Shown: positions 22,499 to 48,615, numbered from the stretch's first letter. The stretch: DNA of 64,000 nucleotides from a virus (IMGVR_UViG_3300045004_000084), one strand, 5' to 3'. Program-made: numbers and translations. The notes: generated by a model from the letters alone, not told the origin.

Positions 22499-25400
22499 TT
22501 ACACCTGGGCCGTCGAACTGAGGTCGGCGCCGGCCGCCTCCTCGGGGAACGGCTCGACAGTTTTCTGCTTGAGGAACAGCACCACGTCGCCCAACTGCTC
22601 GAAGGCGTTACGCAGCGAGTCCTCGAGCTCAGGCATATCCTTCTTCCCGTATCGTTCCTGAAACTCTTCCCCGTGCCAGTAGAAGGAGAACAAGATGCGA
22701 CCGATACGGTCGAGTCCCTTCATCAGGTCGCCGAGGTGTCGGTCGACCATCGTGTCGTCGCGGACCGCCTTGAGAAGCGATCCGACCATCGCCGTGTCGA
22801 ACACCTCTTTCTGCCCAGTCTGGGCCGCCTGCATGCCCGTCTGCATGGTCTGCGGGTCGGGCGGGGTGCGCGGGTCGTAAGCGGCAGTGTTGTTCGTCGC
22901 CGGGTTGGCCGGCATGGCCGGAACCGTCTCCGACTGCGGGTACTGCGCCGGCACCGACCCGTTCAGCGTCGGCTCGCTGCCGGTCGGCGGCGAGGGAAAC
23001 GGCGGGGCACTCGTCATCCCCTGCATCATCGGATCCATCGGATCGCCCGGAATGGCCTGCTTGATCATGTCGTCGACGTCCCGCAGCCAGCCGACGTGGT
23101 AGGCTGTGGGGTCGTCGGGCAGACCGGCCGCCAGTTTCACACGACAGGTGAACCTGCGAGCGTCGAGGGCGTTCTTGACCAGATCGCGGGCCTGCTTCTC
23201 CTTGAGCGCCCAGTCGCGGACCAGGTGACCGACGACGTACTCGCGGTCCATCGGGTACCCGTTGACCTCGACCACGGTCCCGGAGTGGACGATACGCAGC
23301 TCGGCGGTCTTCTCGTAAATCGCCTTCGTCACGTCGAGCATCGTGCCCGGATTGAGCGGCTGCGGATCCGAGGAGTCGCTCCGATAAGATCGCGGACGCT
23401 CGTCCTCCTTGTCGTCGTCGGCCAGAAGGGTGACGAGCTTGTAGTCGCCGGGAACGTAGACTCCGCTCCCCGTCGTCCGGATCCGCCCGCCCTCCTTGTT
23501 CGTGATGTGGAGGTTGTGGTACCAGTTCGAGCAGCAGTAGCTCAACGAGTCGTCGTAGCCGGACCGACTGGCGACGGCCGGCAAGTTGCCCGGCCGCGAC
23601 CGGCTGGCCCAGTCGCGGAAGCTGACCTCGTAGCTGTCCACGGCGTCGTCGCCGCCGATCGCCTTGCGAACCTCGAACGGTAGCGTGCAGTCGCCGTTCG
23701 GGCCGACGAGCATGTACACGGCCGAGTAGCTCGGCTTGAGCGAACCCGGCTTCGACAGACCGTCGAGCCATTTCCGGTACGCCTCAGGGCTGACCTCGTC
23801 CGACTTGCACCACAGGTGAGCCGGGTGGATGTTCAGCCACTTTTTCTTGCCGCTGGTCGCAAACACGGTGGCGAAGTCAGCAGCCCCCTTCGGCCCCTGG
23901 GGGCCGATGACAACCAGGCACTCCTCGAACGTGCCTGGCTGGGTCAGCATGTGGTAGATACCGGTCTCGTGCGGCGTGCTCAGCTTGAGCGGCCCGGTGA
24001 CCTCGTAGGCGATGGAGTTCTCCGGCCGTTCGTCACGGAACGCCACTCCCTCGAGCTTGACCTTGGCCTTCTCTTCGTCGGAGATGTCTTCCATCACGCC
24101 GCTGACGGCAAACGTCTCGTGCGTGATGATCGCCAAGGCACCCTTCTTCTCGACGACCGAGCTGCCGGTTGATTCGACGTCGAGAACGGACCGAGGAGCG
24201 CCCTTCTTCTTGCTCGTGTTAGCGGGGCCAATGAACTGCTCGAACGGCCCCTCCGGGCCTCGCCGTTTGTACTGGCGCGATCCGGATTCCTTCGCCATCA
24301 TCGCCGCCAACTGCTCGTCGCGGTTTTTCTTGCGACGGCGGGCGGCCATCATCGACATCATCGCAGCGATGCCGCCGACCCCCAGAAGGGCGGACGTGGC
24401 ACGGCCGCCCGGCAGTTTGCTGGGCAGCCAACTCGCATGACCGTCGAGCCAGTTGTTGGCTCGATCCAAGTTGCGACCGATGAACCCGCGTGGCGGCGGA
24501 GGCGGCACGGCTCCACCGGGGGCTTCTTCAATCGACGGAGCACCAGTGCCAGCGCCGCCGGTCATGCCGGACTCGCCAGTGCCGTACGGATTCTCGGCCC
24601 CGGTCGGACCCGGCCGGATCGGCGACCCGCCGGGTGGAACCTGCGGCGCTGACGTCAGCACGCCGCCGCCCATACTGCCGGGGTTCGTAGCGGATGGAAG
24701 CGACCCGCCAGCCGGACGCGGCGCCGGCGCAATCTCAGGCGGCTCAGGCGGCTGAGCAAGCGGCACGCCAGACGGACGTGGCGCCGGCGCAATAGCCGGC
24801 GGCTCCATCGTCAGCGGGCTCGTCGGATCCTTGAACGCCGTCTTGTAGAACTGCTGTCGGCTCCGGTCCCAAGCCGGCCGCTGGATGTAACCGTCCAGCG
24901 AGCTGAATGCGTCGTGACCGGTAGACAGAACACCACCGTTGGCCTGGCTCGGGGCCTGTCCGCGCTGGTCGGGAGACATCTGACCGAACTCGAGCCGAGC
25001 AAGGCCCTCCTTCGACAAGATGTCGCTCAGACGAGCTTCACGGGCCTTCGCCTCCTTGATTGCGTCTTGGATGCAGCCCAGGCCGCCGTAGAACTTCTCG
25101 AACGCCGAGGCGAGCTTCGGGAACGCCATCAGGTCTCGGATCAACGACACGATGACCGCCTGGCCTTCCTTCTTGAGGAAGGTCGGAACGTCGATCACGT
25201 CCTTGTACTTCGGGTCGGTGAGCGGGTTGGTCCGGCCGAAGTGGGCGAAGGCCGCCATGCCCGGGACCATCTCGGTCGGGACCGACACGCCGCCCACCTT
25301 GACGTGGCTGGCGTACTTCGACGGCGGACGGCTGAACGCCGACAGCTCGGGGCTCATCACCCCGAGACGGGTCAAGTTCGGCTCGACCTCCTTCCCGAGG

Positions 25401-25879
25401 ATGTTCGGCCGCTTCTGCAGAAGGTGGTTGAGCCAGTTCTCCTTCAGCGGAAGAAACTGGTCTTGGTTCTTGATGTAGAGGAGCTCGTGGCCCTTCAAGT
25501 CGCCGGACAGGAAGAAGCACGGGGCGTAGAGCCACTGACTGCCGACCTTGAATCCGAAAATCCCGACGGCTTTGGTGTTGTCCTCGTTCCGCTCCATCAA
25601 CTGGAACCCGACTTCGTAGTCGAGCAGCGACGGCGCCTTGTCTTTCAAAAAAGCATGAGCGAGGTTGCTGAAAGCCTGCTCGAACTGCGTGTCCTTGCCG
25701 TCTCCGCCCAATTCGGCGACTTTCGTACGGCCGGACGGGCGCACCAGCCGACGGATTGCCGCCAGCAAATGCGACGACTGCTTGCTCATCATGTGGGGCA
25801 TGAGAGTCTTCCTTGACTTTAAGACGAGGCCGTCCTGGCCCATGTGGAACATTATCACCGCAAACAGCCCGGAGAGCAA
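22499..25879 (-). CDS. Very large virion protein (1126 aa) with a central Pro-rich linker, a predicted transmembrane/Gly-zipper helix (ALLGVGGIAAMMSMMAARRRKK) and globular N- and C-terminal regions. Internal/ejected or portal-class protein, unresolved
   Basis: Long ORF with protein-like composition. Hydrophobic helix followed by a basic patch. Confidence 0.5.
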   Translation of the reverse strand: MLSGLFAVIMFHMGQDGLVLKSRKTLMPHMMSKQSSHLLAAIRRLVRPSGRTKVAELGGDGKDTQFEQAFSNLAHAFLKDKAPSLLDYEVGFQLMERNEDNTKAVGIFGFKVGSQWLYAPCFFLSGDLKGHELLYIKNQDQFLPLKENWLNHLLQKRPNILGKEVEPNLTRLGVMSPELSAFSRPPSKYASHVKVGGVSVPTEMVPGMAAFAHFGRTNPLTDPKYKDVIDVPTFLKKEGQAVIVSLIRDLMAFPKLASAFEKFYGGLGCIQDAIKEAKAREARLSDILSKEGLARLEFGQMSPDQRGQAPSQANGGVLSTGHDAFSSLDGYIQRPAWDRSRQQFYKTAFKDPTSPLTMEPPAIAPAPRPSGVPLAQPPEPPEIAPAPRPAGGSLPSATNPGSMGGGVLTSAPQVPPGGSPIRPGPTGAENPYGTGESGMTGGAGTGAPSIEEAPGGAVPPPPPRGFIGRNLDRANNWLDGHASWLPSKLPGGRATSALLGVGGIAAMMSMMAARRRKKNRDEQLAAMMAKESGSRQYKRRGPEGPFEQFIGPANTSKKKGAPRSVLDVESTGSSVVEKKGALAIITHETFAVSGVMEDISDEEKAKVKLEGVAFRDERPENSIAYEVTGPLKLSTPHETGIYHMLTQPGTFEECLVVIGPQGPKGAADFATVFATSGKKKWLNIHPAHLWCKSDEVSPEAYRKWLDGLSKPGSLKPSYSAVYMLVGPNGDCTLPFEVRKAIGGDDAVDSYEVSFRDWASRSRPGNLPAVASRSGYDDSLSYCCSNWYHNLHITNKEGGRIRTTGSGVYVPGDYKLVTLLADDDKEDERPRSYRSDSSDPQPLNPGTMLDVTKAIYEKTAELRIVHSGTVVEVNGYPMDREYVVGHLVRDWALKEKQARDLVKNALDARRFTCRVKLAAGLPDDPTAYHVGWLRDVDDMIKQAIPGDPMDPMMQGMTSAPPFPSPPTGSEPTLNGSVPAQYPQSETVPAMPANPATNNTAAYDPRTPPDPQTMQTGMQAAQTGQKEVFDTAMVGSLLKAVRDDTMVDRHLGDLMKGLDRIGRILFSFYWHGEEFQERYGKKDMPELEDSLRNAFEQLGDVVLFLKQKTVEPFPEEAAGADLSSTAQV

Positions 25880-25885: not shown

Positions 25886-26398
25886 CTATACACGGGGTTT
25901 GTTCGGATCCCCGGCTAACAAAGTCCTCATGTTTTGCCCGCCCCGTGCCAAATCGGCTACCGCTGCCAGACCAGGCAGTCCGGCGTACCCGGCGATCCCC
26001 TTCGTTACCGGCTGCATCGCTCCCATGAACTGCCCGATCTGCTCGGGCTTGATGTTCTGGAGAAAACCGAGCATCCCGCCGGTCGGATCAGCGTCCGGGG
26101 CGGGTGGCGCCGGTGGCGGCTGGGGTACAGGCGCAGGGGGCGGAACCGGGGGCGGAACCGGGGGCGGAACAGCCGCCCGAGCCGGTGAAGGCGTCGGCAC
26201 CGGCGGTGGAACCGGCGGTGGAACCGGCGGCTTAGGCGGCGCCGGACGGGGCGCCGGAGCCGGCATCGGCGGCGGCTTAGGCATCGTTGGAGCCGTCGGT
26301 CCGGCGGGTCCGCCAGTCACCTTCGGCGGAACAGGATTAGGCCCCTTCGGATTGACGCCTTCGGCCGCCAACTTCGCCAGCATAATCTCGAGTTTCAC
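25886..26398 (-). CDS. Proline-rich protein (170 aa; PPVPPPVPPP tracts)
   Basis: ORF whose start overlaps the beta'C gene end by 4 nt. Confidence 0.4.
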   Translation of the reverse strand: MKLEIMLAKLAAEGVNPKGPNPVPPKVTGGPAGPTAPTMPKPPPMPAPAPRPAPPKPPVPPPVPPPVPTPSPARAAVPPPVPPPVPPPAPVPQPPPAPPAPDADPTGGMLGFLQNIKPEQIGQFMGAMQPVTKGIAGYAGLPGLAAVADLARGGQNMRTLLAGDPNKPRV

Positions 26399-28314
26399 AG
26401 CACCCCTCCCCCCATTGACGGCTCGATAAACGGTTTGACTTCCTTGACATCGAAGCCCTTCACCTTGCCCTTCTGCCCGAAGTTCGTCGGATTAGCGAGA
26501 GCGGGTACGAACGACGTACCCTCAGGGTCGGACACGGCGCCACGGTGTACACTCTTCGTCAAAGACTTCTCCAAGTTCGAGCCGAGCATACGGGTCATCC
26601 AGTCCGGGTCGTACTGCAGACTGTCGAGTCCGCGTACGAAGTGCGGCTCGAACGGTGGTTTTTCATCGTGGACGACCAGATCCTTGATGCCGAACGCCTC
26701 CATGTCCTTGAGCATCGAAGGCGTCACACGAGTGCCGACAGTGTGATGCAGAACGGGCTTCTCGAGGTACTTGCCCACGGCCGTCTTGTAGGACATCGTT
26801 CGAGCTCCGTCCCGAGGTCGGTATGTGCGCTCGAACACGTCGTACGGAATCACGTCGTCGGGCAAGTATTCGCCCACCTCGTCGTTGAGACGGACGTGGT
26901 TGATGAGGCCACGGGCCAGGATCTCGATGTTCCGCCGGTGGCCGCCCATGCCGGCGTTCCGCATCCCGACGCGAAACGCGTCCATGAACAGTCGACGAGC
27001 CTCGCCGATGCCCTTGTGGCGGGTCACCTGGTCGGGGTTCACCAGACCGTCGGTCAGAGGGTCGCCGGCCTCGACCGAGTCGCCGACCTTGTACTTCACC
27101 TCGGCGTCCGGGCCGGCGTAGTGCTTCACCCCGTTGACGAAGACGAAGTTACCGCCGGCCGGCGCCTTCTCGATGGCCGAGACGATCCCGTCTTTCTGCG
27201 CGTGGGTCGCCCAGTACGGACTGGTCTTCGGGCTCTGCACGAGCTGGTTCAGGTACTTGAACCCGCTCACCGACTTCGACGCCCCGGCCACGCCGCCGGA
27301 GTGCTTGCTGGACAAGCCGCCCTGGCTGATCGGTTCGGACAGCGCCTGCACGGCGGCGATGCCGACCACGTCGCCCTTCGGCGGCAGCCCGCCCCGCTCG
27401 CGGACCCCGACGTCGCGGGCGTACAGGCCGCCGTCCGGGGCTCCGGTCGCGACGGGGGAGCGGACCAGGATGCGGCCGATGCCCTTCGCCTTCAGGTCCC
27501 TCAACACCCGTGGGGTGAGAACGGTGTTCCGCTTGTACGGCCCGAAGTCACGAGCCAGAAGAGCTCCCTCGTTGTCCGCGTCGTCGGTGTCCACCGGCAG
27601 GCCCCGCCCGACGAGTCGCTGATCGTCATCGTCGTCCTTCGCGGTGATCAGCAGCCGGTGACCGATCTGGTTCAACTGCTTGGAGAAGAACCCGGCGTCC
27701 TGGGTGGCGAACTTGGTGTCGGCCACGCCCTTGCGGGCGCCGAACGCCCCCGCGAAGTACTCGGCCGGGGACAGGCCCTTCGAGTACGAGTTGAGGATCG
27801 GGATGGGAATCGGGTTGTCGTGGTGGTCGGTGTACAGGAGGTCGCCGCCACGCAGCGACTTCAGGTTCATAGGCTTCCCACGGGAGCCGGACATGACCTG
27901 CATGGCGAGCGGGTTCTTCTCGGCCTTCGACTCCTCGAAGATCTCGCCCTCCAGACGCTGTTGGTGCTGCATGAGCATGTGGACGATGGCCTTCTGCTTG
28001 GCCGCGTCGTCCAGAGTCGGCGAGGCGAGGATCTGGTCGAGGTTGGTTTGCAGTTCGGTGCGGGCGTTCGCCATCGCCTTCGAGCCCCGCAGGGCCTTCA
28101 GGCCGAAGCTGTACCCGCCGGTGTAATACGCCACGTCGCGGCCGATGTCGGACAGCCGCTTCGCCACGTCCCGGTACTTGTCCGGGTGCTTCTCGGCGAC
28201 CTGCTGCATGAGCGCGGCCAGGCCCTTCCCGTCGAGGGGCCGCTCGTAGTCGCGGAGCTCTTCGGGAAGGGCCTCGTTCACCAAGATTTGACCAGCAGTA
28301 GCACGCAGCGGCAT
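26395..28314 (-). CDS. DNA-directed RNA polymerase beta' subunit, C-terminal module (bridge helix + trigger loop), as a separate 639-aa polypeptide
   Basis: 'GAFGARKGVADTKFATQDAGFFSKQLNQIGHRLLITAKDDDD' aligns to the beta' bridge helix ('[29 protein letters not shown]'). 'GIAAVQALSEPISQGGLSSKHSGGVAG' aligns to the trigger loop ('[27 protein letters not shown]'). Confidence 0.85.
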   Translation of the reverse strand: MPLRATAGQILVNEALPEELRDYERPLDGKGLAALMQQVAEKHPDKYRDVAKRLSDIGRDVAYYTGGYSFGLKALRGSKAMANARTELQTNLDQILASPTLDDAAKQKAIVHMLMQHQQRLEGEIFEESKAEKNPLAMQVMSGSRGKPMNLKSLRGGDLLYTDHHDNPIPIPILNSYSKGLSPAEYFAGAFGARKGVADTKFATQDAGFFSKQLNQIGHRLLITAKDDDDDQRLVGRGLPVDTDDADNEGALLARDFGPYKRNTVLTPRVLRDLKAKGIGRILVRSPVATGAPDGGLYARDVGVRERGGLPPKGDVVGIAAVQALSEPISQGGLSSKHSGGVAGASKSVSGFKYLNQLVQSPKTSPYWATHAQKDGIVSAIEKAPAGGNFVFVNGVKHYAGPDAEVKYKVGDSVEAGDPLTDGLVNPDQVTRHKGIGEARRLFMDAFRVGMRNAGMGGHRRNIEILARGLINHVRLNDEVGEYLPDDVIPYDVFERTYRPRDGARTMSYKTAVGKYLEKPVLHHTVGTRVTPSMLKDMEAFGIKDLVVHDEKPPFEPHFVRGLDSLQYDPDWMTRMLGSNLEKSLTKSVHRGAVSDPEGTSFVPALANPTNFGQKGKVKGFDVKEVKPFIEPSMGGGVL

Positions 28315-28327
28315 TTACTCCGACTCC

Positions 28328-28960
28328 TCAGCTACAGGTCAGAACCCGAGTGTTGACGTCGTACGTCCAGAACTCGATTCGCTCCCGATGGCAGATGTCG
28401 CGACACCGATCGACGCCGGGCTTGCTCACCTCGCCAGTGACAAGAATCAGACACACCGGCTTCTTCGATGTCATGTGAGCGTAGTGCAAGACCTGCCCGA
28501 CGCACTCGGCCCACTTGTGAGCAAAGTCGATCTCGATCACGAATTCGTCGGTGACGATATCAACCCGGCAGCCGTCCTTGAGGACGTATTCGTCGGTAGC
28601 CGTGATTCCCTCGCGGTTCAGCAGGGCGACGATGTCGGCCTGGTATCCGCGCTCGGTCTTGTTGTCTGACGCGGCAGCGACAGCCTGCGGCGTCTCGCGG
28701 CGCTTCCTCAGCCGATCGAATAAGTCCTGCAACGGTCCCTTCCTTGGAGCCGGCTGATCGGGATCAATGGTGCCAGGCGGATCGGGGTCTTTCTTCGGCG
28801 GATCGAATGGAATCGTGGCCGGCGGCTCCTCCGACTCGACCGGCGGAGGAAGCGGGTCAGGCGCAGGCGGAGCCGGCAACGCATTGCCCTTTCGGCCCCT
28901 CCACCACTTCAACGCCAGAACCACAGCGACGGCGATTCCGGCCCAAATCAGTTCTTCCAT
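28328..28960 (-). CDS. Membrane-anchored protein: N-terminal TM helix, Pro-rich linker, C-terminal alpha/beta domain with a D...E.D pattern (possible nuclease-like fold)
   Basis: Track ORF 28328..29110 trimmed to MEELIWAGIAVAVVLAL..., because the upstream part overlaps the 79-aa gene and is Arg-rich junk. TM segment and PPAPDPLPPP linker present. Confidence 0.4.
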   Translation of the reverse strand: MEELIWAGIAVAVVLALKWWRGRKGNALPAPPAPDPLPPPVESEEPPATIPFDPPKKDPDPPGTIDPDQPAPRKGPLQDLFDRLRKRRETPQAVAAASDNKTERGYQADIVALLNREGITATDEYVLKDGCRVDIVTDEFVIEIDFAHKWAECVGQVLHYAHMTSKKPVCLILVTGEVSKPGVDRCRDICHRERIEFWTYDVNTRVLTCS

Positions 28961-28964
28961 GACT

Positions 28965-29204
28965 TCACTCAATTTGGAAATCACCGGCCTTGAGATCCAG
29001 TTTGGAGACCTTCGCCGGCTGGTAGTGACCCATCGACGCCAGAAGACGATTGAACTCCTTATCGGTCGCCTTGTAGACGACCAGCCGGTTCGGCGCTTCT
29101 TCAAGAACAATCATCAGCGGCTGTCCGAAGTTGTCCCGGACGATCAGCCGCGTGGCCTGTTCGAGCTTCGCGCCCGTCAGGCCGTTGTGGAAGTCAAGTT
29201 GCAT
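28965..29204 (-). CDS. Small protein (79 aa), unknown
   Basis: ORF with protein-like composition. Its start overlaps the upstream gene's stop. Confidence 0.35.
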   Translation of the reverse strand: MQLDFHNGLTGAKLEQATRLIVRDNFGQPLMIVLEEAPNRLVVYKATDKEFNRLLASMGHYQPAKVSKLDLKAGDFQIE

Positions 29205-30010
29205 CAGAGGTTCAGCTTTCGGTGGATCGCCAGCATCGCCGCTGCCTTCTCCGCAACCGACGCGGTCTTGGCTCCGCCGAGCGGCTGGATCGGAAGGATG
29301 GGCTTGATGCCGGTCGGGTTATTCGCCTTCTTGTCAGTGCCAGAGCTGCCGCCACCGGACCCCGACGAGGACGAGCCGCCGTCCTTCGAGTCCCCGCCCT
29401 CATCGCCTTCGGGCTTGGGCTCGTCGAGGATGTCGTACGGCAGCGGAACGCCGATCGCACTGTAGAGGTGCGTCATCAGCTTCTGGTTACGCTGCATGTA
29501 CTGCTGAAGTTGCTCGGGGTCGATCTTCCCCTTGCCCTTCGGCTTGGCGCCGGCCGAGCCGGCGCCGTTGCCCATTGCCTGTTGAATCTCCTCGCGGATA
29601 ATCGAGCGGATGTCACCGCCAGCGCCGGCCGCAGCCGGATCGGACGGAGGAGGCGGCGGCGCCCCGCCCATCGCAGCGGGGTCCATCGGAGGAGCGCCGC
29701 CACCTGCAGCGGCCATCATGGCCGGGTCCATCGGAGGAGCGCCGCCACCTGCAGCGGCCATCGGATCGCCGCCCGGCGGAGCCCCACCCATCGCAGCCGG
29801 GTCCATCGGAGGAGCGCCGCCTGCAGCAGCCATCGGGTCGCCGCCCGGCGGAGCCCCCGGAGGAGCGCCGCCGCCCGGCGGAGCACCGGGCGGGACAAAC
29901 GCGATTTTGACGTGCTTGACGGCCGCCTTCGCCGCCTTGAAAAGCTCTCGGTTCAGTGGCATGTGAACGTCCTTGTCGTGTATGACCGCTCCGCGCGGCC
30001 GTGGGTTCAA
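29204..30010 (-). CDS. Low-complexity repeat protein with 'GGAPPMDPAAMGGAPPGGDPMAAAGG' units, a Lys-rich segment and a Gly/Ser-rich segment
   Basis: Approximately 60-bp imperfect DNA tandem repeats (about 29600-29900). ATGA overlap with the upstream gene. Confidence 0.4.
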   Translation of the reverse strand: MNPRPRGAVIHDKDVHMPLNRELFKAAKAAVKHVKIAFVPPGAPPGGGAPPGAPPGGDPMAAAGGAPPMDPAAMGGAPPGGDPMAAAGGGAPPMDPAMMAAAGGGAPPMDPAAMGGAPPPPPSDPAAAGAGGDIRSIIREEIQQAMGNGAGSAGAKPKGKGKIDPEQLQQYMQRNQKLMTHLYSAIGVPLPYDILDEPKPEGDEGGDSKDGGSSSSGSGGGSSGTDKKANNPTGIKPILPIQPLGGAKTASVAEKAAAMLAIHRKLNL

Positions 30011-31533
30011 GAGGACAGCAGCCGAGCCAGTTTGTTCACGGAGGCCATCTTCGAGCGGGCCTTTTCTTCGGCCTTCATCCGCTGCCTGATCTCGGTCGCC
30101 TCGCGGTCCTTCTGGCGGGGGTGAGTACCCATTATCAGGCGAGCGCCGCCCAGACCAAGGCCGCCGCCCAGAACGGCACCAAGCAGCGCGCCCTTGCCGC
30201 CGCCAACTTCGTTGCCGATCAGGCCGCCGACCCCAGCGCCAAGGCCCAGGCCGCCGCCATACAGGGCGCCGCGACCGGCACCCTGCGTGCCGTACACCGA
30301 CGGACTGCGGGCGGCACCGAGAGCCGCCCCGCCGAGAGTCAGAATCGGTACGAGACTGCCGGCCCGGGCCGGAGCGATTGCGCGGATTTTGCCCGCCATT
30401 GCCGCACCAGGGTCGTAGCCGAGCGGACGTTCGGTGGCAATTTTTACCAAGTCGATCACGGCGGCCTCCTTGTCGGTTTCCTTTTTGTCTTTCTTGTCCT
30501 TCTTGTAGTCATTGTTACCGGTCGAAGGAGTCGACTTCTCGTTCGCCTTTTGGGCGGCGTACTCCCGCTCACGAACACCGGCCCGGGCGATCCCCATCGC
30601 TTTACCCGCCACCAGGCCGGTAAGCGCCATAGGGTTGGCTCCGAGAAGAGGGGGGACCAATCCTCCGACGTAGCTGCCGTAGCCGGCCGGAAGGACGCGG
30701 TCGCGGCGGACGAGGATGTTGTGCAGATCGTCCGGCTTGTCCTTCAAGCCCTGGTCGAGCGCTGATCGGCTTTTGAGATTGGCCTGACCTTCGTGGAACA
30801 GCCTGAGCGGGGGAACGAAGGTGTAGAGCGCGTCGTACCCGTCGCGGGTCAGTTTGCCCACCAGACCGGGGTTCTTGCCGCTCTGATCGTTGAAGTCGAT
30901 CGCGTGACCCAGCTCGTGGGTCGTCACCGCCGGCTCGTCGCCGTATATCGAGGCCGCATCCGCCGCCGGATTGTAGTGGCTCGACCGAGTCAGGTTCGTC
31001 AGCAAAGACGAAGGGATCGCCCCCACCATGCCGAATCCCTTGCCCAACAGCGACGTTCGGGGGTTCTGCATGATCCGGCCGCCGATCCGGTTGTACCACC
31101 GGCCGGGGTCTTGATCGCCGTGACGCTTCTTCCACAGCATGTCGTCGATAAGGTCGGTGCCCTCAAGACGCACGACAGTATCGTTGAGTTGATCGGGAGC
31201 CGCCGCCTCCATTGCCTTCGCGATCGCCTGGTGCTTCTCCGGTCGATCTTTAGCAGAAGCGTTGTGGTAAGCCCGTCCCGTCAAAATCAGATTCAACAAA
31301 TTTCTCGGGTACAACCTGCCCAGAGTCAGCGATGTGAGGCGGCTCGGCAGCCCGCCCGGCACGACCTCGACCGCGAGCTTTTCCTGATCGTTGAGTCCCA
31401 CGGCGACCTCCTTGCTCTTCTTCTTGGCTTTCTCCGGCAGCTTCGAGAAGTCCGTCTCGGCCGCCCACTCCTTCGCCATCTCGGGTTTGTTGGCGAACAT
31501 CCACCGCTGTTGGGATCGTGACTTGAATGGCAT
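30007..31533 (-). CDS. Putative zinc metallopeptidase (HExxH: 'THELGHAIDF') with a Lys-rich linker and a C-terminal glycine-zipper/amphipathic tail. Probable virion-associated enzyme
   Basis: HELGH motif. C-terminal GGGLGLGAGVGGLIGNEVGGGKGALLGAVLGGGLGLGG. Confidence 0.5.
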   Translation of the reverse strand: MPFKSRSQQRWMFANKPEMAKEWAAETDFSKLPEKAKKKSKEVAVGLNDQEKLAVEVVPGGLPSRLTSLTLGRLYPRNLLNLILTGRAYHNASAKDRPEKHQAIAKAMEAAAPDQLNDTVVRLEGTDLIDDMLWKKRHGDQDPGRWYNRIGGRIMQNPRTSLLGKGFGMVGAIPSSLLTNLTRSSHYNPAADAASIYGDEPAVTTHELGHAIDFNDQSGKNPGLVGKLTRDGYDALYTFVPPLRLFHEGQANLKSRSALDQGLKDKPDDLHNILVRRDRVLPAGYGSYVGGLVPPLLGANPMALTGLVAGKAMGIARAGVREREYAAQKANEKSTPSTGNNDYKKDKKDKKETDKEAAVIDLVKIATERPLGYDPGAAMAGKIRAIAPARAGSLVPILTLGGAALGAARSPSVYGTQGAGRGALYGGGLGLGAGVGGLIGNEVGGGKGALLGAVLGGGLGLGGARLIMGTHPRQKDREATEIRQRMKAEEKARSKMASVNKLARLLSS

Positions 31534-31575
31534 GGATGTACTCCAACAGTGTAACCGATCCCTAATTGAGGGTCA

Positions 31576-32181
31576 CTACCTTCTGGTCTGGTGTGGACAC
31601 ACGCCGTACCGGCTTTTGGCGATGTTGCAGTTGGCGCACAACACTTGGAAGCCTTCCGGGTACCCTCTGGCTCGGAGCCACTTGTACAGGTAGTTGGACC
31701 CCGCCATCCGACGGCGCAGTCCGCCCGACCCGTCGATGTGGTCGATCTGAAGGAACTCGGGTGTCGATTCACCACAGCACGCACATGCGTATCCGCCGTA
31801 CGCCGCGAAAACCTCGTCGCGCAACTTGCGGTAGTTCCGGCGACCGGCTTCGAGGCACTTCGCGCAGCTCTTTTTGCCGAGTTCCGGTCGGTCGCCGCAC
31901 CGTACGCAAAGGCCGTCACTTCTCGTACGATTCGCTCGTTTGCGGTTGTAGTTGCGGTGGTATAGGTAACAGCCCTCACAGGTGGTGGCTCCGGCCCGTG
32001 GCGGCTTGCCGCAGGCGCAGACCGTATCGTTCCTCTTCGACTTCCGGTTGGCCTGCTGCCACGCCAGGTACTTCTCGTGGCACGGTTGGCAGCGGACTCG
32101 ATCCGGAGCAGCCGGCTGGCGGCCGCACACCACGCACAGACCTTTTTCTTTTCGGCTCCTGTACTGCTCCTGTACGCCCAT
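31576..32181 (-). CDS. HNH endonuclease (homing-endonuclease type) with N-terminal multi-CxxC zinc ribbons
   Basis: 'LQIDHIDGSGG...LCANCNIAKS' is a His-Asn-His core. Six or more CxxC pairs lie upstream. The gene begins 4 nt after the stop of the RNAP beta-beta'N gene. Confidence 0.85.
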   Translation of the reverse strand: MGVQEQYRSRKEKGLCVVCGRQPAAPDRVRCQPCHEKYLAWQQANRKSKRNDTVCACGKPPRAGATTCEGCYLYHRNYNRKRANRTRSDGLCVRCGDRPELGKKSCAKCLEAGRRNYRKLRDEVFAAYGGYACACCGESTPEFLQIDHIDGSGGLRRRMAGSNYLYKWLRARGYPEGFQVLCANCNIAKSRYGVCPHQTRR

Positions 32182-32185
32182 GACG

Positions 32186-35100
32186 TCACCCCAGAATAAC
32201 GACGTTGCTAGACGGCTTGATTCGCCCCTGACGCAGAGCCCGAATCATGTCGGCCTTCGTCTGGAAGTAGTGCGGCGAGCCGTTGTCTTTGGACGCAGTC
32301 GACTCGTATAGACCTCCAAGATACTCATTTTGTGGCATCATGTGTACACGAAAATTCTTGACCGCCAGCAGGTTGCGCGACGGCAGCATCTTCTCCATCG
32401 CGTCGCGGACGGCGGCGTCGCTGGCCGGGACGTGGTAGTTCATGGCGTCGCCGTCGAAGTCGGCGGCGAACCCCTTCACGATCAGCGGCGGCACCTGCAG
32501 CGTCTCGCCCTTCACCAGCCGGGGTTTGAACGCCATCGTCCCGTACCGGTGGAGCACCGGCGCCCGCGTCAGAATCACCGGCCGTTCGTCCATCTCGTCC
32601 TGCAGGGCGGTCAGCGCCATCTTCTCGTTGTTCTTGACCATCTCGGCGGCCCGCAGCGGGGGGACGCCCCGGCGGGCCAGGCGGCGGATGACGAACGGCT
32701 TGTAGATCTCCCACGCCTTCGACTCCGGCAGCCCGACCTGGTCCATGTCGAGCTCCGGGTTGGGCGTGATGACGGCCCGGCCGACCGTGTCGACGGTCGA
32801 CCCCAGGAGCTTGCGCTGGACGACGCCGAACTTCGGGTTGTCGCCGAAGACGTACTTCAGCACGCCCTTGACCTTCCGCTCGACGTGCTTCGGATTCGTC
32901 GGATCGCCAAGGCCGGTAACTGCCTTGAACGACTTGTACAGATTGAGCCGCTCCTGACCGACGTCGTCGACCATCTGGCTCATGTCCTTCAGGGCCTGGT
33001 TCGACTCGAACAGATCCTTGTACAGGTAGTTCGGGTCGGACACCATCGGTCGTCCCGACGAGCCCATGACCGACACCGGCCGGAACGCCGGCGGCAGCAC
33101 CGGAACTTTGTTCATGACCCAGTCGCCTGGGTGTATGCCAAGGCGCTGGGCGTGCCGGAGTAGAGCCAGCTTGCGGATCGCCTGGTCTCTGCTAGACCGC
33201 TTGCCGCTCCGAAACTCCGCCTCAGCCGCGTCGATTCCCTTCTGCACGTCGATCCGCTTCAAGGCTGACGCGATCGCAGGCGGCCCCTTCATGCCGTTGA
33301 GCTCGGCCTTGCCGATCATCACCTCCTCGAACTTCTTCTCCGTCAGACCGAGGACGCGCCGAATCGGTTCCTCCATGATCGGATTGGGCATGGGCTCGTG
33401 GAGACGTATGAAAGACCAACGGTTGCCGCCGTGGCCGCCCGTCAGCGTGTTGTCGAACAGCCCGCCGGCAACAGGCTTGAGGCCATCCTTCCAGTCCACC
33501 GTCTCGGCGTTCGTGACCTCGCGACCGGCCGCCATCTGGTCGATGTCGCGGTCGGTCAGAGCCATGACCTGGGTCTTCGACCCGCGAGCCACCGGGTTGA
33601 TTCCGGCCGATTGTAGTTGCGCCAAGAATTTTCGGTAAACGAGGGGAACCTTCGGTTCCGGCGGCGTCTTGCCGGCCATGAACGCGGCCCAGAAATCCTG
33701 GTTCTTCTGCCCCCGAATGGACCCGGCGTCGTGCAGAACGCCGTGAGCGCCGTGGCTCAGCAAAGCGTTGATGTCCATGAGCGAGATCCGCTTGGAGCCG
33801 GTTTCGCCGCCCTTCGCCGGGGTCTCTTCGTTCGTGTATCCGCCGAGGCCACGCCCTTGCCCCTTCGACTCGGACGTGTGGTGCAACTTCATGAAGAAGC
33901 GGTTCCCGGTGAACACCTGGGAAATCTTCCGCTGGGTAGTCGGATCCTCCACGTCCTCGGTGTCCGGGATGCCATGGCGACCGAGTTCGGCGATAGCCAT
34001 CTCGACCATGTCGTCGATGTTGTCGAAGTCCTTGATGGCGTACCGCCGCCCCGTCCGCTCGGCGATCTTGCCGAGGGCGGCCTCAACCATCTGACCGGGG
34101 TTGGTACGGGTGATAATGCCGAGCGGATTCGCCAGAACCTCGTACGGCTTGCCGTCACCGTCCCTGGGCATCTCCTCGTCGGGAATGATGTGAGCGATGA
34201 CGCCCTTATCGCCGTAGCGGCCGGACAATTTGTCGCCGACCTTCATCTCGGACAACGACTTCACGGTGACGACTACACCCTTGTCCGTCTTCTCGACGTC
34301 TGTTACGACGCCCGGATCGTGGTGGTCCCAGGTCAGGGTCGAATCACTGAACATGGCCTCCTTGCCACGGACGATCTGGTTGTGAGCGCGGTCCTTGGCC
34401 TTGGCCTGGAGAACGAGTGGATGACCCTCTTCGACGCGAGTCCCGGGAGCGACGATTCCGTCACTGTCCAAAGTGTCGAGCATCTTGCGGTCGAACTTGG
34501 TCGGGAACAGAGACAGGAACGTCTTCTTACCTCTCTTGGTGTTATCCTCCCACTCCGTATCGTGCTGGTACATGTGCTCGCTGGAAAGCCGCTTGGCGGC
34601 CGCCTGCGAGATCACGATTGCGTCCTCGAAGTTCAGGCCCTTATACGGCAGGTAAGCCACCCGCATGTTCAGGCCCAGAGCGGTCGCCCCCTTGTCGTCG
34701 GTGTAGTTCGACTTGGCGAGTAAGTCGCCCTTCTTCACCATGTCACCGACGCCCACAACCGGAGTGTTGTGCAAAAACGTCTTGCGATTGAACGGCAAGT
34801 TGTTGTGCAGCTCGTGGACCTGAACCTTACCGTCTGGACCCTTGACGTGAACCTCGTCCGGCGAGACGTGAACCACCTGCCCCTCGACGTCCGAGTGGGC
34901 GGCGCCCATGTACTTGCCGTACTCCTCCTCAAACGAGCGGTCGTCGTGGTCGGGTATGCCGGCCTGGACGAACGGCGCCTGCGGATTCGCCAGCGGCAGC
35001 GCCTGAGTGAGCATCCGCGCACCCATCATCACCCGCTGGCCCTTGATGGTGCTCTTCAACGGGATCATGTTGGCGAGCGGGTTGAAGGCCGACTCCATGT

Positions 35101-36649
35101 TCGGCATCGTCAGGTCGACCTTGTCGCGCGGAACATACTTCAGCTTCCCGCCCTGTAGGGCCGCGACCATCGTCTTCTTCTGGTCGCGGAGTTCGCCGGG
35201 AAAGGCGATGGTCATGTCGGCCACGTCCTGAGGAGTCTTCCACACCTTGTCGCCGGACTTCGGGTCGAGGAACTGGCTGTACACCTTTCCGTCGGTACCC
35301 TTGCGGGCGTTGAACGCCAGCCTGGAGTCGACGCCGACCTTGAAGCTCTCGGGGGTTAAGAGCGGGTCGACGTACCCGAAGTGAGAAGGCTGGACGTTGC
35401 GCGCCTCTTCCGGCACCGAGTCGATGCTGGGGATGCCGCCCTCACCGAGTCGAGATACGCGGGTGATCTGACTGAGCAAGTCCGCCGGGTTCACCTCCTC
35501 GAGCGGTTGACCCAGGCCCGACGCAGTAATCGCCGCCTTGACGTGCTTGTCGAGGAAGTTGGCCCCGAGCGGACTCAGATTCTGCTTGAACGTGGCCTTC
35601 CACAACAGCGGCCGTAGAGCCTTATGGGCGTTGCGCAGCCTCTCCGCAAACAGGTCCTCCGGTCCGAGCAAGTTCTGATACGCAAGTGCGTCGCGGTCGT
35701 CGGGCTCCTGCTCGCCCTTGTGAACAGCCAGAATACGTTTCGTCGAAGACAGTATCGAGTCCACGGACAATCGGTCGAACCCCGTGCCGAGGGTGCGCTT
35801 CGTAACCTCCGGGTCGAGGTGCATATCGCCGAGCACTTTCGCCAGGGCAGCCCGACGGTTGTCAGGAGTGTCAGGTCCGTCGGTGTTCTTGATGAGACGC
35901 TTAACCAACTTGTCGACCACTCGAGGGTCGTCGCTCTTGAGGTTGGCCCCGAGCACGTCGTCGCCCCACGCCTCGCGGAGCTGCATCTCGGTGGCGCCCA
36001 TCGCACGCAGCACCGGCAACAACGGAAGCTGCGCCTGACCGAAACCGATCTTGAACGTGCTCTTCTCGGGGTCGAGCGTGTACCGGTGGCTGACCCCCTT
36101 GCCCGGAAGGATATTAACGTGACTCTCGACCTCGCCGTTGTGCTTGTGGCGAGTGAAAATGCCCGGCCTCAGCCGCATCTGGTTGGCGAGCGTGTATTCG
36201 GTGCCGTTGAGTACGAACGTGCCGCCGTCGGTCATCACCGGGACAGTGGCAAGAGTCGTCTTTCGCTCGTCGATGGTCGCCCCGGTGGCGTTGTCCACGA
36301 GCCGCCAGGTGCCACGCAGTCGTCGGCCCAAGGTTTCGCCGCGAAGAATGGCCCGCTTGCGGTCCTTCTTCTTGACGTCCTCGGGATCGGCCCAATCGAC
36401 GTCGGATAGCTGAAGAGTGTGACGTGTGTTCTGGACAGGTTGTATACCACGAGCAGCGTTGAGCACGCCGTCGTAAATCGACCGACGCATGGCAGGAACG
36501 TCGGCGAAGTCGCGCATAGCAGGGCCGGCGGTGGCGGGTTGAATCGCCACCGCCGGCGTGGGCGCCGGTGCCTGAGTGGAATTTATTGTAACCGGCGTGG
36601 GTGGCTTCGGCAACACCCCGGCCGGTGAGTCGTCGAGGACTCCGGCCAT
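32186..36649 (-). CDS. Fused multisubunit RNA polymerase beta - beta' N-terminal polypeptide (1487 aa): a complete-looking beta subunit followed directly by the beta' region up to and about 90 aa past the catalytic NADFDGD loop
   Basis: Beta motifs: 'GRYGDKGVIAHIIPDEEMPRDGDGKPYEVLANPLGIITRTNPGQ' aligns to 'RHGNKGVISKI..DMP...[21 protein letters not shown]', and 'RISLMDINALLSHGAHGVLHD' aligns to 'GEMEVWALEAYGAA'. Beta' motifs: 'RAPVLHRYGTMAFKPRLV' and 'GFAADFDGDAMNYHVP' align to 'NADFDGDQMAVHVP'. Confidence 0.9.
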   Translation of the reverse strand: MAGVLDDSPAGVLPKPPTPVTINSTQAPAPTPAVAIQPATAGPAMRDFADVPAMRRSIYDGVLNAARGIQPVQNTRHTLQLSDVDWADPEDVKKKDRKRAILRGETLGRRLRGTWRLVDNATGATIDERKTTLATVPVMTDGGTFVLNGTEYTLANQMRLRPGIFTRHKHNGEVESHVNILPGKGVSHRYTLDPEKSTFKIGFGQAQLPLLPVLRAMGATEMQLREAWGDDVLGANLKSDDPRVVDKLVKRLIKNTDGPDTPDNRRAALAKVLGDMHLDPEVTKRTLGTGFDRLSVDSILSSTKRILAVHKGEQEPDDRDALAYQNLLGPEDLFAERLRNAHKALRPLLWKATFKQNLSPLGANFLDKHVKAAITASGLGQPLEEVNPADLLSQITRVSRLGEGGIPSIDSVPEEARNVQPSHFGYVDPLLTPESFKVGVDSRLAFNARKGTDGKVYSQFLDPKSGDKVWKTPQDVADMTIAFPGELRDQKKTMVAALQGGKLKYVPRDKVDLTMPNMESAFNPLANMIPLKSTIKGQRVMMGARMLTQALPLANPQAPFVQAGIPDHDDRSFEEEYGKYMGAAHSDVEGQVVHVSPDEVHVKGPDGKVQVHELHNNLPFNRKTFLHNTPVVGVGDMVKKGDLLAKSNYTDDKGATALGLNMRVAYLPYKGLNFEDAIVISQAAAKRLSSEHMYQHDTEWEDNTKRGKKTFLSLFPTKFDRKMLDTLDSDGIVAPGTRVEEGHPLVLQAKAKDRAHNQIVRGKEAMFSDSTLTWDHHDPGVVTDVEKTDKGVVVTVKSLSEMKVGDKLSGRYGDKGVIAHIIPDEEMPRDGDGKPYEVLANPLGIITRTNPGQMVEAALGKIAERTGRRYAIKDFDNIDDMVEMAIAELGRHGIPDTEDVEDPTTQRKISQVFTGNRFFMKLHHTSESKGQGRGLGGYTNEETPAKGGETGSKRISLMDINALLSHGAHGVLHDAGSIRGQKNQDFWAAFMAGKTPPEPKVPLVYRKFLAQLQSAGINPVARGSKTQVMALTDRDIDQMAAGREVTNAETVDWKDGLKPVAGGLFDNTLTGGHGGNRWSFIRLHEPMPNPIMEEPIRRVLGLTEKKFEEVMIGKAELNGMKGPPAIASALKRIDVQKGIDAAEAEFRSGKRSSRDQAIRKLALLRHAQRLGIHPGDWVMNKVPVLPPAFRPVSVMGSSGRPMVSDPNYLYKDLFESNQALKDMSQMVDDVGQERLNLYKSFKAVTGLGDPTNPKHVERKVKGVLKYVFGDNPKFGVVQRKLLGSTVDTVGRAVITPNPELDMDQVGLPESKAWEIYKPFVIRRLARRGVPPLRAAEMVKNNEKMALTALQDEMDERPVILTRAPVLHRYGTMAFKPRLVKGETLQVPPLIVKGFAADFDGDAMNYHVPASDAAVRDAMEKMLPSRNLLAVKNFRVHMMPQNEYLGGLYESTASKDNGSPHYFQTKADMIRALRQGRIKPSSNVVILG

Positions 36650-36653
36650 GTGC

Positions 36654-37682
36654 TCACCCCTTGATGTCTACCTCGTCGCCGCGTCGAACCACCGGTGTCG
36701 GCACCGCGAAGATCTCCGGCGTACGAGTCGCCCATCGCTCCCGCGACCGCTTCTTCACCAGGTCGGCGAGGACTTTGTTCGGATCCGTCTTGGAGAAGTA
36801 CTGATTAGCCAGGTATCCGCTGCCAAGTGCCAGGCCGCCGGCCAGGGCGGCGTACAGACCCAGGGCACTGCCGCCGACCGAACTGGCGGTCTGCTGTGCT
36901 TTGAAAGTCGGAAACAGGCCATCGACCCTTTTCCCGATGGTGTCGGTCCAGGTTTCCTCGCCGAGCTTGGTCATGAGCGTCGCCAGCTCATGCAGATCGC
37001 GGGCCAAGAGGCTGGCTGCCGAGCCGCGCTTGACCAGCGAAATCTGCTTCGGGTCGTACATATCGACCAGGGCCTCCTGGTACTCCCGCTTGGCGTCGTC
37101 CAGTTCCCCCTTGAGATCGGCCTTTCGCTTCTTGTTCAAAATCCAGTCCATGATCTTGTATCCGCCGATGCTTCCGCCGACTGTCGCCGCTCCGACTGCC
37201 GGGATGTACCACGGCATCTGCGTCTTGCCGAGTTCCGACGTCGGGCTGGCACCGTGACCTGCAAGCCATCCGCCGTCTTCCGGGTTGAACGGGTTCTTGT
37301 ACATGCCCAACATCGAGCCGATCGGGTGCAGCTTCTGGGCCGACTTGATCTGCGTCCCTGCCGCCCCCCGTATTGTCTGGTCCTTTTTCTTCTTCCGAAT
37401 GCCGGCGTCGGAGTCAGTGTCAAACACCGGGCGCGGCACCTCTAGCAGCGCCGGACTTTGATCGGCCAGCAGGGCCGGCTTGCCCCGTCCGAACATGGTG
37501 CCGGCACCTTGCAAACCGCGCACGCCGATACCCAACGCCCCGGCCAAAAGCAGCGCACGACTGACGTCACCTATCCCTTGCGAGATCATCTCGTTGCGGG
37601 CATTGACGGTGATCGGGTCGTTGTCAAGTTCCGACCGCTTCACGAACTGGTCTTGGATGGCTTTGGTAATCGGGCTTCGCAT
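36654..37682 (-). CDS. Glycine-zipper virion protein (342 aa), unknown
   Basis: GAATVGGSIGG and ALGLYAALAGGLALGSG motifs. Follows the RNAP gene with a 4-nt gap. Confidence 0.45.
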   Translation of the reverse strand: MRSPITKAIQDQFVKRSELDNDPITVNARNEMISQGIGDVSRALLLAGALGIGVRGLQGAGTMFGRGKPALLADQSPALLEVPRPVFDTDSDAGIRKKKKDQTIRGAAGTQIKSAQKLHPIGSMLGMYKNPFNPEDGGWLAGHGASPTSELGKTQMPWYIPAVGAATVGGSIGGYKIMDWILNKKRKADLKGELDDAKREYQEALVDMYDPKQISLVKRGSAASLLARDLHELATLMTKLGEETWTDTIGKRVDGLFPTFKAQQTASSVGGSALGLYAALAGGLALGSGYLANQYFSKTDPNKVLADLVKKRSRERWATRTPEIFAVPTPVVRRGDEVDIKG

Positions 37683-37685
37683 GAA

Positions 37686-38048
37686 TTATCTCCCCACCTC
37701 TGAGGTACCCGGCCGCGTCGGAATGCGACCTTTCGGTTCCGCCCATTCCATAAGCACCTTCACAATAGTGCCGTCCGTCGAGATGATTTCCCGTCGGACG
37801 AGCTGGATGCACGCACGGTTGGCGATCCGATCGCGTATATCCTGGTAAGCCTCCATGTCCGTCGGCTCGAGCAGGTCGAATATCCGTACCTGGACATCCA
37901 CCTCGACAGGGATGTTGCGGTACTCCTCGTCCCGCATGTTGGGCATCATGCCCGGGTTCTTGATGGGGAACCCATGGTGGGTCGCCGCCCGCTGATCGCG
38001 GTACTTGGGACTCACGCCCCGCCCACCGAAATGACTCAAGATGTCCAT
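37686..38048 (-). CDS. Small protein (about 120 aa), unknown
   Basis: Track ORF 37686..38102 trimmed to MDILSHF... so that it abuts the upstream gene's end at 38050. Confidence 0.4.
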   Translation of the reverse strand: MDILSHFGGRGVSPKYRDQRAATHHGFPIKNPGMMPNMRDEEYRNIPVEVDVQVRIFDLLEPTDMEAYQDIRDRIANRACIQLVRREIISTDGTIVKVLMEWAEPKGRIPTRPGTSEVGR

Positions 38049-38049
38049 C

Positions 38050-38508: not shown

Positions 38509-38518
38509 GGCGTCCTCC

Positions 38519-38926: not shown

Positions 38927-39011
38927 GCCGGCATCCTTGCTCAAAAGGGAGCGGGCATTCCGTGCCCGCAGTTCACAGCTTACCGAAGTCAACCCCGTCT
39001 GTCACGGCCGG

Positions 39012-48529: not shown

Positions 48530-48615
48530 AGCACCGGTCTCCGGTAAGGACGCCCTCGCGTGACGTACGCGGAGGGCACCGGATTATGACAGGCCGTTCC
48601 GGCCAGTGAAGTGTA

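Follow-up and report, generated by a model that had tools for sequence, protein, structure and literature searches.

The 64,000-nucleotide stretch of DNA from the uncultured phage IMGVR_UViG_3300045004_000084 (hereafter the window) raises the question of how the catalytic core of a bacterial-type RNA polymerase (RNAP) can be encoded by two genes, one joining the beta subunit to the N-terminal half of beta-prime and the other specifying the remaining C-terminal half. The fused beta::beta-prime-N gene is located at positions 32186-36649 (stop codon included) and encodes a protein of 1487 amino acids (aa), and the beta-prime-C gene at positions 26395-28314 encodes a protein of 639 aa. The two chains comprise 2126 aa in total and their genes are separated by 3.9 kb. 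These genes, the features within them and the adjacent structural genes all lie on the minus strand. Both open reading frames (ORFs) had been described in an earlier interpretation of the DNA, the sequence-only reading, and were recovered exactly as claimed there. The data presented below make it almost certain that the two genes represent the complete catalytic core of a two-polypeptide phage RNAP of bacterial type.

The larger protein was assigned by means of its ORF and of matches to Pfam and the Protein Data Bank (PDB). The Pfam search yielded the beta domains Rpb2_3 (aa 383-449) and Rpb2_6 (aa 589-939, E=7.5e-51), followed by the beta-prime domains Rpb1_1 (aa 1170-1225) and Rpb1_2 (aa 1347-1419, E=1.7e-23). 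In the PDB, the best bacterial beta subunit was matched with E=1e-79 over nearly the full length of beta; in one such match aa 60-1040 of the query were aligned to residues 31-1074 of a cyanobacterial beta subunit of 1100 aa. The downstream part, aa 1095-1478, matched residues 151-541 of the Francisella beta-prime subunit (E=1.5e-48). A phmmer comparison with the Escherichia coli subunits related aa 64-1018 to residues 51-1336 of the 1342 residues of beta, and aa 1102-1453 correspond to residues 160-516 of beta-prime. According to this alignment, beta forms one continuous segment of the fused chain and is not split into pieces. The E. coli beta stretches of about residues 229-416 and 892-1055 are without counterpart, which explains the compact size of the phage protein. 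Together with the alignment of the junction described below, the comparison with E. coli RpoB delimits a beta-homologous part at positions 33578-36649 (aa 1-1024) and a beta-prime N-terminal half at positions 32189-33577 (aa 1025-1487) whose end corresponds to about residue 565 of E. coli beta-prime.

The motifs cited in the sequence-only reading are present. The active-site motif GRYGDKGV of the beta double-psi beta-barrel (positions 34199-34222, aa 810-817) aligns with GRHGNKGV of E. coli, and the NPLG motif is found at aa 841. The catalytic Mg-binding motif AADFDGD (positions 32447-32467, aa 1395-1401) is located 86 aa upstream of the C-terminus, close to the previously estimated distance of about 90 aa. 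The DFDGD residues are invariant across 46 aligned homologs, as are the catalytic signatures of the core. Both double-psi barrels, with the lysine motif GxxGxKG of beta and the DFDGD Mg site of beta-prime, are found on this polypeptide, so that the joining of beta to beta-prime-N places both catalytic barrels on one chain. Next to near-full beta, this first chain accordingly contributes the clamp together with its helices, and the double-psi barrel that holds the Mg site. The beta-prime clamp helices RDQAIRKLALLRHAQRLG (positions 33137-33190), the coiled-coil to which sigma region 2 docks, align with E. coli beta-prime residues of about 270-300.

Structure predictions were calculated with AlphaFold2 for single chains, that is, for aa 288-1487 of the fused protein and separately for beta-prime-C, and gave confident folds of bacterial character for beta, beta-prime-N and beta-prime-C. 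The former model reached a mean local confidence (predicted local distance difference test, pLDDT) of 74.9 and a predicted template modelling score (pTM) of 0.62, and the best structural matches according to Foldseek were cyanobacterial, Thermus and mycobacterial beta subunits. The clamp helices form a confident coiled-coil of two helices, at model residues 848-860 and 864-883 (pLDDT 82-90), and the flap-tip region is present with low confidence. The fold search of the PDB with this model returned separate beta chains only, and no solved chain covering the whole fusion was found. A comparison of the rifampicin pocket (window positions of about 35450-35500, minus strand; aa of about 385-400) with that of E. 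coli revealed the exchanges H526 to Q, D516 to E and F514 to P, which suggest that the phage enzyme may be insensitive to rifampicin.

The 639-aa protein provides the part of beta-prime that is missing from the fusion. Its first residue corresponds to about residue 566 of E. coli beta-prime; the protein contains the Pfam domain Rpb1_5 (E=2.3e-14) and has PDB matches that correspond to the C-terminal half of beta-prime. In the alignment with the E. coli protein, aa 121-354 correspond to residues 707-952 and aa 410-492 to residues 1200-1283. The bridge helix GARKGVADTKFATQDAGFFSKQL, beginning with GARKGVADT (positions 27673-27741, aa 192-214), and the trigger loop AAVQALSEPISQGGLSSKHSGG with its catalytic histidine (positions 27292-27357, aa 320-341) were both recognized by alignment with the Thermus and E. 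coli subunits. The AlphaFold2 model (pLDDT 80.0, pTM 0.69) contains long helices at aa 183-218 and 317-339, in the areas of the bridge helix and the trigger loop, and its top Foldseek match was Thermus beta-prime with a template modelling score of 0.66 over the query. The second chain thus contributes the bridge helix, the trigger loop, the jaw and the clamp C-terminus.

The junction between the two halves of the fused protein (positions 33560-33610) was defined by a MAFFT alignment of the concatenated E. coli beta and beta-prime sequences with the fused proteins of Salmonella phage Arash, of Vibrio phage D69 and of three metagenomic homologs. The beta C-terminal residues SAGINP (aa 1014-1019) correspond to SLGINI of E. 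coli and are followed by the connector VARGSKTQV, the beta-prime N-terminal strand beginning about eight residues later. In comparison with E. coli, about six final residues of beta and about 15 first residues of beta-prime are absent. The same junction occurs in Arash, D69 and the metagenomic homologs, and the fusion point is therefore kept in homologous phages. The proposed architecture of a beta::beta-prime-N fusion and a free beta-prime-C is in this way supported by Pfam, by the E. coli alignment and by the junction alignment.

Downstream of the junction, the beta-prime zinc ribbon, the lack of which had already been pointed out in the sequence-only reading, is deleted: in the sequence LTGGHGGNRW (positions 33416-33445) a five-residue loop, GGHGG, takes the place of E. 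coli residues of about 59-100 with their CxC...CxxC cysteines. The alignment showed the deletion to be common to Arash, D69 and the metagenomic homologs. The second zinc site of beta-prime is located near the E. coli cysteines 814/888-898. Both structural zinc sites of bacterial beta-prime are missing, as the ribbon is deleted and neither chain has any cysteine in 2126 aa, compared with a background of 1.1% (P of about 6e-11). Cysteine is also completely absent from 82 of 95 homologs of the fusion and from 100 of 102 homologs of beta-prime-C. Moreover, cysteine-free proteins are clustered around the polymerase genes at window positions 26395-42043 (minus strand; 639, 268, 508, 1487, 342 and 651 aa). 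These six proteins comprise 3895 aa without a cysteine, against the same background of 1.1%, and the sheath and other structural proteins have normal cysteine contents. The cluster may mark proteins that are ejected or refolded.

The position at which beta-prime is cut corresponds to E. coli residue of about 565 in the window protein and to residues 564-568 in Arash and D69. It is located 45-50 residues downstream of the split in Ralstonia phage RP13 and Escherichia phage IME392, which are possibly of the phiKZ type, and, according to one alignment, about 65 residues upstream of the C-terminus of the cyanobacterial gamma subunit. All of these cuts fall within one inter-domain stretch after the catalytic barrel. 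A PDB search with the first 157 aa of beta-prime-C returned three weak actinobacterial matches only, and no finer position of the cyanobacterial split was obtained from it. In Rhizobium phage RHph_TM30 beta-prime is unsplit. Trans-splicing of the two chains by a split intein was considered and rejected, since the alignment with E. coli beta-prime is contiguous over the cut; in addition, no intein halves (of about 100 and 35 aa) were present.

The two-gene architecture is not confined to this phage. An identical 1487-aa protein is encoded on nine contigs from the JGI metagenome 3300044294 and several Logan assemblies, and a word-indexed search detected at least 724 homologs of the fused protein on contigs of up to 235 kb and at least 1174 homologs of beta-prime-C, the latter mostly of 623-660 aa. 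Among the best 120 homologs of the fused protein (54-100% identical), 92 have lengths of 1440-1530 aa and a few are shorter, and 24 are longer owing to one to three insertions of about 150-400 aa, most of which contain intein Pfam domains. Likewise, 101 of the best 120 homologs of beta-prime-C are stand-alone proteins of 615-670 aa, and most of the others are longer through inserts or C-terminal extensions. A query of 181 aa spanning the junction was compared with 1.84 billion cluster representatives (clusters at 50% identity) and matched 1053 clusters at E<=1e-3, 996 at E<=1e-10 and 450 at E<=1e-30; among the matches listed, nearly the whole query was aligned, so the junction is spanned. Since the identical protein occurs on nine independent contigs and its length and domain order recur in hundreds of homologs, the fusion is no assembly artefact, and the mis-assembled conventional rpoB-rpoC pair that the sequence-only reading had raised as an alternative is ruled out by the nine contigs and the 996 clusters.

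The family is rich in inteins. The insertions in the fusion homologs are located at conserved motifs, namely at aa of about 384, 435, 625-632, 809 (inside GRYGDKG, an intein hot spot), 849 (NPLG), 928 and 950, and insertions at aa of about 326-335, in the trigger loop, mark an intein hot spot in the beta-prime-C homologs. Some of the latter proteins carry C-terminal extensions of 330-490 aa, with total lengths of 961-1108 aa, and cluster representatives of the polymerase family reach 3350 aa. No near-identical DNA was found in phage records, and no prophage or cellular copies were detected in 185,579 species genomes with peptide patterns of the fused protein, which reach close relatives only.

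Among 50,697 phage records, full-length matches to the fused protein were obtained for four phages only, namely Salmonella phage Arash and the Vibrio phages D69, D148 and D181. The respective proteins are gp206 (1525 aa) and gp216 (606 aa) of Arash, and proteins of 1527 and 609 aa in the three Vibrio phages (VPHD69_0261 and VPHD69_0264 in D69). The identity to the window proteins is about 30% for the fusion and 24-27% for beta-prime-C, and each of the four genomes contains one copy of each RNAP gene. A fifth record with more than 80% coverage, labelled as a Staphylococcus phage, is aligned in three segments and appears to represent neighbouring cellular rpoB and rpoC genes rather than a fusion. 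Arash and D69 share with the window the two-gene architecture, the junction, the zinc-ribbon deletion, the split point, the synteny of the structural genes and a lineage-specific sigma factor, whereas they differ in the genes between the two polymerase genes and in having one to four cysteines instead of none. A group I intron (Rfam RF00028, 100.7 bits, E=1.3e-26) carrying a homing endonuclease splits the fused gene in D181 and D148 (positions 4964-5244 and 5258-5875 of the D181 region, L020); the joined exons form an ORF of 1527 aa that is 99-100% identical to the uninterrupted gene of D69.

The genomic context of the polymerase genes was likewise compared with that of the cultured phages. 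By tblastn, the window is colinear with Arash for the fusion, beta-prime-C, gp218, gp222, the major capsid protein gp226, gp233/234, the tail sheath gp236 and gp237. A co-oriented virion structural module extends downstream of the RNAP genes from position 4257 to 25879, as judged from tblastn synteny with Arash and D69 and from matches to PHROG sheath and head families; it includes the homologs of gp218 (positions 22499-25879) and gp222 (positions 15439-16914), the major capsid protein of 310 aa, syntenic with gp226 (positions 11866-12798), and the tail sheath, which corresponds to gp236 by synteny and was also matched by PHROG (positions 4257-7025). The colinearity and the PHROG matches indicate that the polymerase genes are part of the virion structural module and share its orientation. 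Within this module, an ORF with Pro-Thr-Thr repeats and glycine-rich stretches (positions 16926-18214, minus strand) fills an apparent non-coding gap of 1.3 kb.

The search for the remaining subunits of a bacterial RNAP gave a twofold result. The sequence-only reading had noted the lack of recognizable alpha and omega homologs nearby, and this was borne out: no Pfam match to either subunit was obtained among the window proteins, and phmmer searches (--max) with E. coli RpoA and RpoZ yielded none in the six-frame ORFs of the complete Arash genome, the window, the 10-kb flank L009 and the D69 region, the same method recovering beta at 1e-71. Sigma factors were not detected by Pfam inside the window. 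A sigma-70-family protein of 277 aa is, however, encoded about 9 kb past the left end of the window (L009:21588-22421, contig Ga0438296_000084), still within the structural module. It contains Sigma70_r3 (31.9 bits at a cut-off of 25.3) and a region-4-like helix-turn-helix, and its 36 matches in the PDB belong without exception to the sigma-70 family, SigA ranking first with coverage of regions 2-4 (E=3.8e-4). The protein is homologous to the Arash virion protein gp10 (E=5e-15). Among the 50,697 phage records, homologs of this sigma factor are restricted to Arash, D69, D148 and D181, the same four phages that contain the fused polymerase, and are syntenic there, at 11-12 kb from the genome start. 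Arash possesses a second sigma-like gene, gp196 (Sigma70_r2, E=6e-10).

As judged from the sequences, promoter recognition by this polymerase is probably sigma-like. The lineage-specific sigma factor, encoded in the structural module and co-occurring with the fusion, and the conserved clamp helices make the earlier statement that promoter recognition would have to differ from that of cellular RNAP probably wrong. Sequences resembling promoters occur in the window: the 13-mer CCTGTCATAATCC, which is extended -10-like (TGnCATAAT), is present twice in intergenic DNA (positions 47190-47202 and 48581-48593, both on the minus strand), each copy downstream of a GC-rich hairpin and a T-run in the same intergenic region, and the similar TGGTAGAAT at position of about 42150 (plus strand) precedes the ribonucleotide reductase gene. 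Both sequences are candidate promoters.

A comparison with known RNAPs placed the phage enzyme outside the described architectures. The RpoBC proteins of Helicobacter and Wolbachia resemble it in that the C-terminus of beta is joined in frame, head to tail, to the N-terminus of beta-prime. In these bacteria the fusion comprises a complete beta-prime with its zinc sites, and the polymerase also includes alpha and omega. The beta-prime part of the window protein, by contrast, breaks off near E. coli residue 565, and a second gene at a distance of 3.9 kb encodes what follows. The gamma/RpoC1 and beta-prime/RpoC2 subunits of cyanobacteria and plastids share the split of beta-prime between the catalytic barrel and the bridge helix, but the cyanobacterial gamma subunit of 624 aa continues for about 65 residues past the end of the phage fusion protein, beta is free, and the enzyme has the zinc ribbon as well as alpha and omega.

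Among the phage enzymes, the RNAPs of the phiKZ-like and AR9/PBS2-like jumbo phages are similarly composed of beta and beta-prime homologs without alpha and omega, with beta-prime cut after the catalytic barrel, and one of their enzymes is packaged in the virion and injected (PMC7598289). There, however, beta occurs in two to three pieces and is never joined to beta-prime, whereas in the window it is whole and fused, and there are two paralogous enzyme sets (virion and non-virion) per genome, whereas the cultured relatives of the window phage contain one. Furthermore, these jumbo phages have no recognizable sigma-70 homolog, their gp68 and gp226 being sigma-like in structure or function only (PMC13282480), whereas the phage of the window encodes one, and its polymerase sequences are much closer to bacterial RNAP. 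The mReC phages (Weinheimer and Aylward 2020, PMC7481178) are uncultured tailed phages with bacterial-like, deeply branching beta and beta-prime subunits as well. In the available part of that publication these are encoded by separate genes (about 900-1520 aa for beta and 900-1390 aa for beta-prime) and no pair of about 1480 and 640 aa appears, and a beta/beta-prime fusion is mentioned there for crAssphage alone (PMC7481178). The mReC capsid protein is of the T4 gp23 type (PF07068), whereas that of the window has 310 aa and no PF07068 match was found among the window proteins. As far as the available part of the mReC publication allows, membership of this group was rejected on the basis of architecture and capsid type. 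The sequence-only reading had regarded the arrangement as an unusual permutation unfamiliar from characterized systems. The second half of that statement holds, since the two-chain layout is absent from reviews of phage RNAPs up to 2026 (PMC7598289, PMC7824862, PMC13282480) and no description was found by searches of the literature outside subscription-only papers; with 996 clusters and four cultured phages, the layout is nevertheless not a one-off.

The proposed function of the enzyme starts from its two chains. In the absence of an alpha dimer and of omega, the covalent tether between beta and beta-prime-N would replace the alpha2 assembly platform. The enzyme would be made late, packaged in the virion as in Arash, and enter the cell together with the DNA, where it would start phage transcription independently of the host RNAP, as in phiKZ-like and N4-like phages. 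Promoter specificity would be conferred by the 277-aa sigma factor, the ortholog of Arash gp10, docking on the retained clamp helices and the flap. Speculatively, the loss of both zinc sites and of nearly all cysteines might help the proteins to be packaged, ejected and refolded, and be adaptive in this sense. This whole reading, a virion-delivered and sigma-dependent two-chain core without alpha or omega, is considered reasonably probable, and the combination of virion delivery with sigma dependence is given a little better than an even chance. The furthest-reaching version is put forward tentatively and falls somewhat short of an even chance; it would make the system the first fully phage-encoded, self-sufficient sigma-70-dependent holoenzyme, consisting of two chains without alpha, omega, zinc or cysteine, packaged with its sigma factor, ejected to launch infection and distributed over about 1000 clusters (50% identity) on phage contigs of up to about 235 kb.

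Delivery by the virion draws, indirectly, on the location of the genes in the structural module and on the proteome of Arash particles, in which gp206 yielded the most spectra of all proteins (3516), gp216 yielded 1210, the sigma factor gp10 yielded 467 and the helicase gp217 yielded 1148 (PMC10585845). Several points weigh against the proposed function. Of the 252 phage proteins, 116 were detected in the same preparation, ribonucleotide reductases and RNA ligases among them, and the authors of that study allow for a carry-over of abundant proteins from infected cells (PMC10585845). Per residue, the spectra of gp206 amount to about half those of the capsid protein, a proportion too high to be plausible for an enzyme carried in the virion and one that points to co-purification. 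Packaging is, moreover, known for Arash only and not for the phage of the window. Phage sigma factors often redirect the host polymerase, and the 277-aa protein could serve the host RNAP instead. The single-sequence and Pfam searches are compatible with a very divergent or non-homologous assembly subunit, for instance the 342-aa protein encoded upstream of the fusion, or with the recruitment of host alpha2. Finally, the window is part of a genome, and a second RNAP set elsewhere in this phage is possible.

The best of the alternatives takes these points up. It assumes a two-chain enzyme that is not packaged and is made during infection for middle or late transcription, with the virion signal of Arash representing contamination and host RNAP reading the early genes. 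The breadth of the Arash protein list, with its ribonucleotide reductases and RNA ligases, and the contamination raised by the authors (PMC10585845) agree with this, as do the sigma-70-like extended -10 motifs, potentially usable by a host holoenzyme, that lie between genes in the non-structural half of the window. The polymerase genes, on the other hand, are embedded in a co-oriented structural late module with gaps of 4 nucleotides to their neighbours, which is the wrong timing for starting middle or late transcription and matches the way in which the virion polymerases of N4 and phiKZ are encoded (PMC7598289), and gp206 is the top Arash protein by spectra (PMC10585845). Such an enzyme is therefore regarded as unlikely.

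Less probable again is a hybrid enzyme in which host alpha2, and perhaps omega, would assemble with the phage beta::beta-prime-N and beta-prime-C chains under a host or phage sigma factor. Judged by the PDB matches (E=1e-79 for beta and 1.5e-48 for beta-prime), the phage chains are indeed far nearer to the bacterial subunits than phiKZ-type enzymes are reported to be (PMC7598289), and host subunits are the only source of homologous alpha and omega, since none was found in the phage. A hybrid packaged without alpha would, however, be inactive on entry, and the family would need to cooperate with many different alpha subunits, as it covers Salmonella, Vibrio and a phage of about 63% G+C, with about 30% identity between members. 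A tether between beta and beta-prime, as in fused rpoB-rpoC of E. coli, reportedly relieves assembly dependence. The enzymes of phiKZ and AR9, furthermore, function without alpha (PMC7598289). An artefact or decay product (mis-assembly, a frameshifted rpoB-rpoC pair, a split-intein pair or a pseudogene) has a negligible probability, as nothing speaks in its favour apart from the frequent inteins that prompted the split-intein check, and it is refuted by the nine contigs, the 996 clusters with the same junction, the invariant catalytic residues, the contiguous alignment over the split and, in Arash, the detection of both chains as separate products (PMC10585845).

The region between the polymerase genes contains four ORFs of 201, 508, 268 and 260 aa. 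Four intervening genes had been noted in the sequence-only reading, and this number stands for the window, although the JGI annotation of a near-identical contig has five and one of the four is a mobile element. The latter, located at positions 31576-32181 (minus strand), encodes an HNH homing endonuclease of 201 aa (phrog_2255, E=1.7e-11) with 18 cysteines, begins 4 nucleotides past the stop of the fused gene and is not present in relatives. The HNH gene is a recent mobile insertion that stands outside the enzyme and helps to account for the 3.9-kb gap. The other three ORFs (positions 28328-31533, minus strand; 508, 268 and 260 aa) have no assigned function, and a weak counterpart in a relative was found for the 268-aa ORF only. 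D69 contains two tiny ORFs between the polymerase genes, and in two relatives with 56-60% identity the fused gene is followed by four small ORFs (1.4-1.7 kb) and then by beta-prime-C, with conserved neighbours on both sides. The four intervening genes of the window are a lineage-specific expansion. Upstream, a gap of 4 nucleotides separates the start of the fused gene from the gene of the cysteine-free 342-aa protein (positions 36654-37682, minus strand), which is conserved and without a family match. Its homologs directly precede the fused gene in the relatives L018 and L019, and this position suggests that the protein could be a candidate partner of the polymerase.

Apart from these genes, the window contains a set related to nucleotide metabolism: a glycosyltransferase-methyltransferase fusion, an HD phosphohydrolase, a pyrophosphatase, a 5'-deoxynucleotidase, a phosphoribosyltransferase and a B12-type ribonucleotide reductase, at positions 9608-10864, 47284-47910, 49475-51076, 55496-56125, 61593-62198 and 42237-44522. 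The set hints at modified DNA, which could be a reason for the phage to carry its own polymerase. A 546-aa protein at the right end of the window is not on record, and tRNA and Rfam scans of the window gave no matches.

All cellular multisubunit RNAPs need an alpha-like assembly platform. The enzymes of phiKZ and AR9 show that alpha and omega are dispensable, but they are too divergent to tell how. Multisubunit RNAPs of phages are a known class, and the sequences of the cultured members as well as the virion proteomics of Arash are already public; in metagenomes the family described here reaches the considerable size of 996 clusters (E<=1e-10), yet it goes unmentioned in reviews up to 2026. 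Its members are about 25-30% identical to bacterial beta and beta-prime, carry both barrels on one chain and have cultured hosts in Salmonella and Vibrio. This closeness to bacterial RNAP and the cultured hosts make the replacement of alpha and omega and the role of the zinc sites directly testable. The reviews describe phage RNAPs without sigma or phage sigma factors that redirect the host RNAP (PMC7598289, PMC7824862, PMC13282480); if the sigma factor works with this core, a phage-borne sigma-dependent holoenzyme would represent a new transcription strategy. A two-chain core without alpha or zinc and with its own sigma factor would matter to RNAP specialists, and a compact, cysteine-free bacterial-type RNAP encoded by two genes could serve as an orthogonal transcription module.

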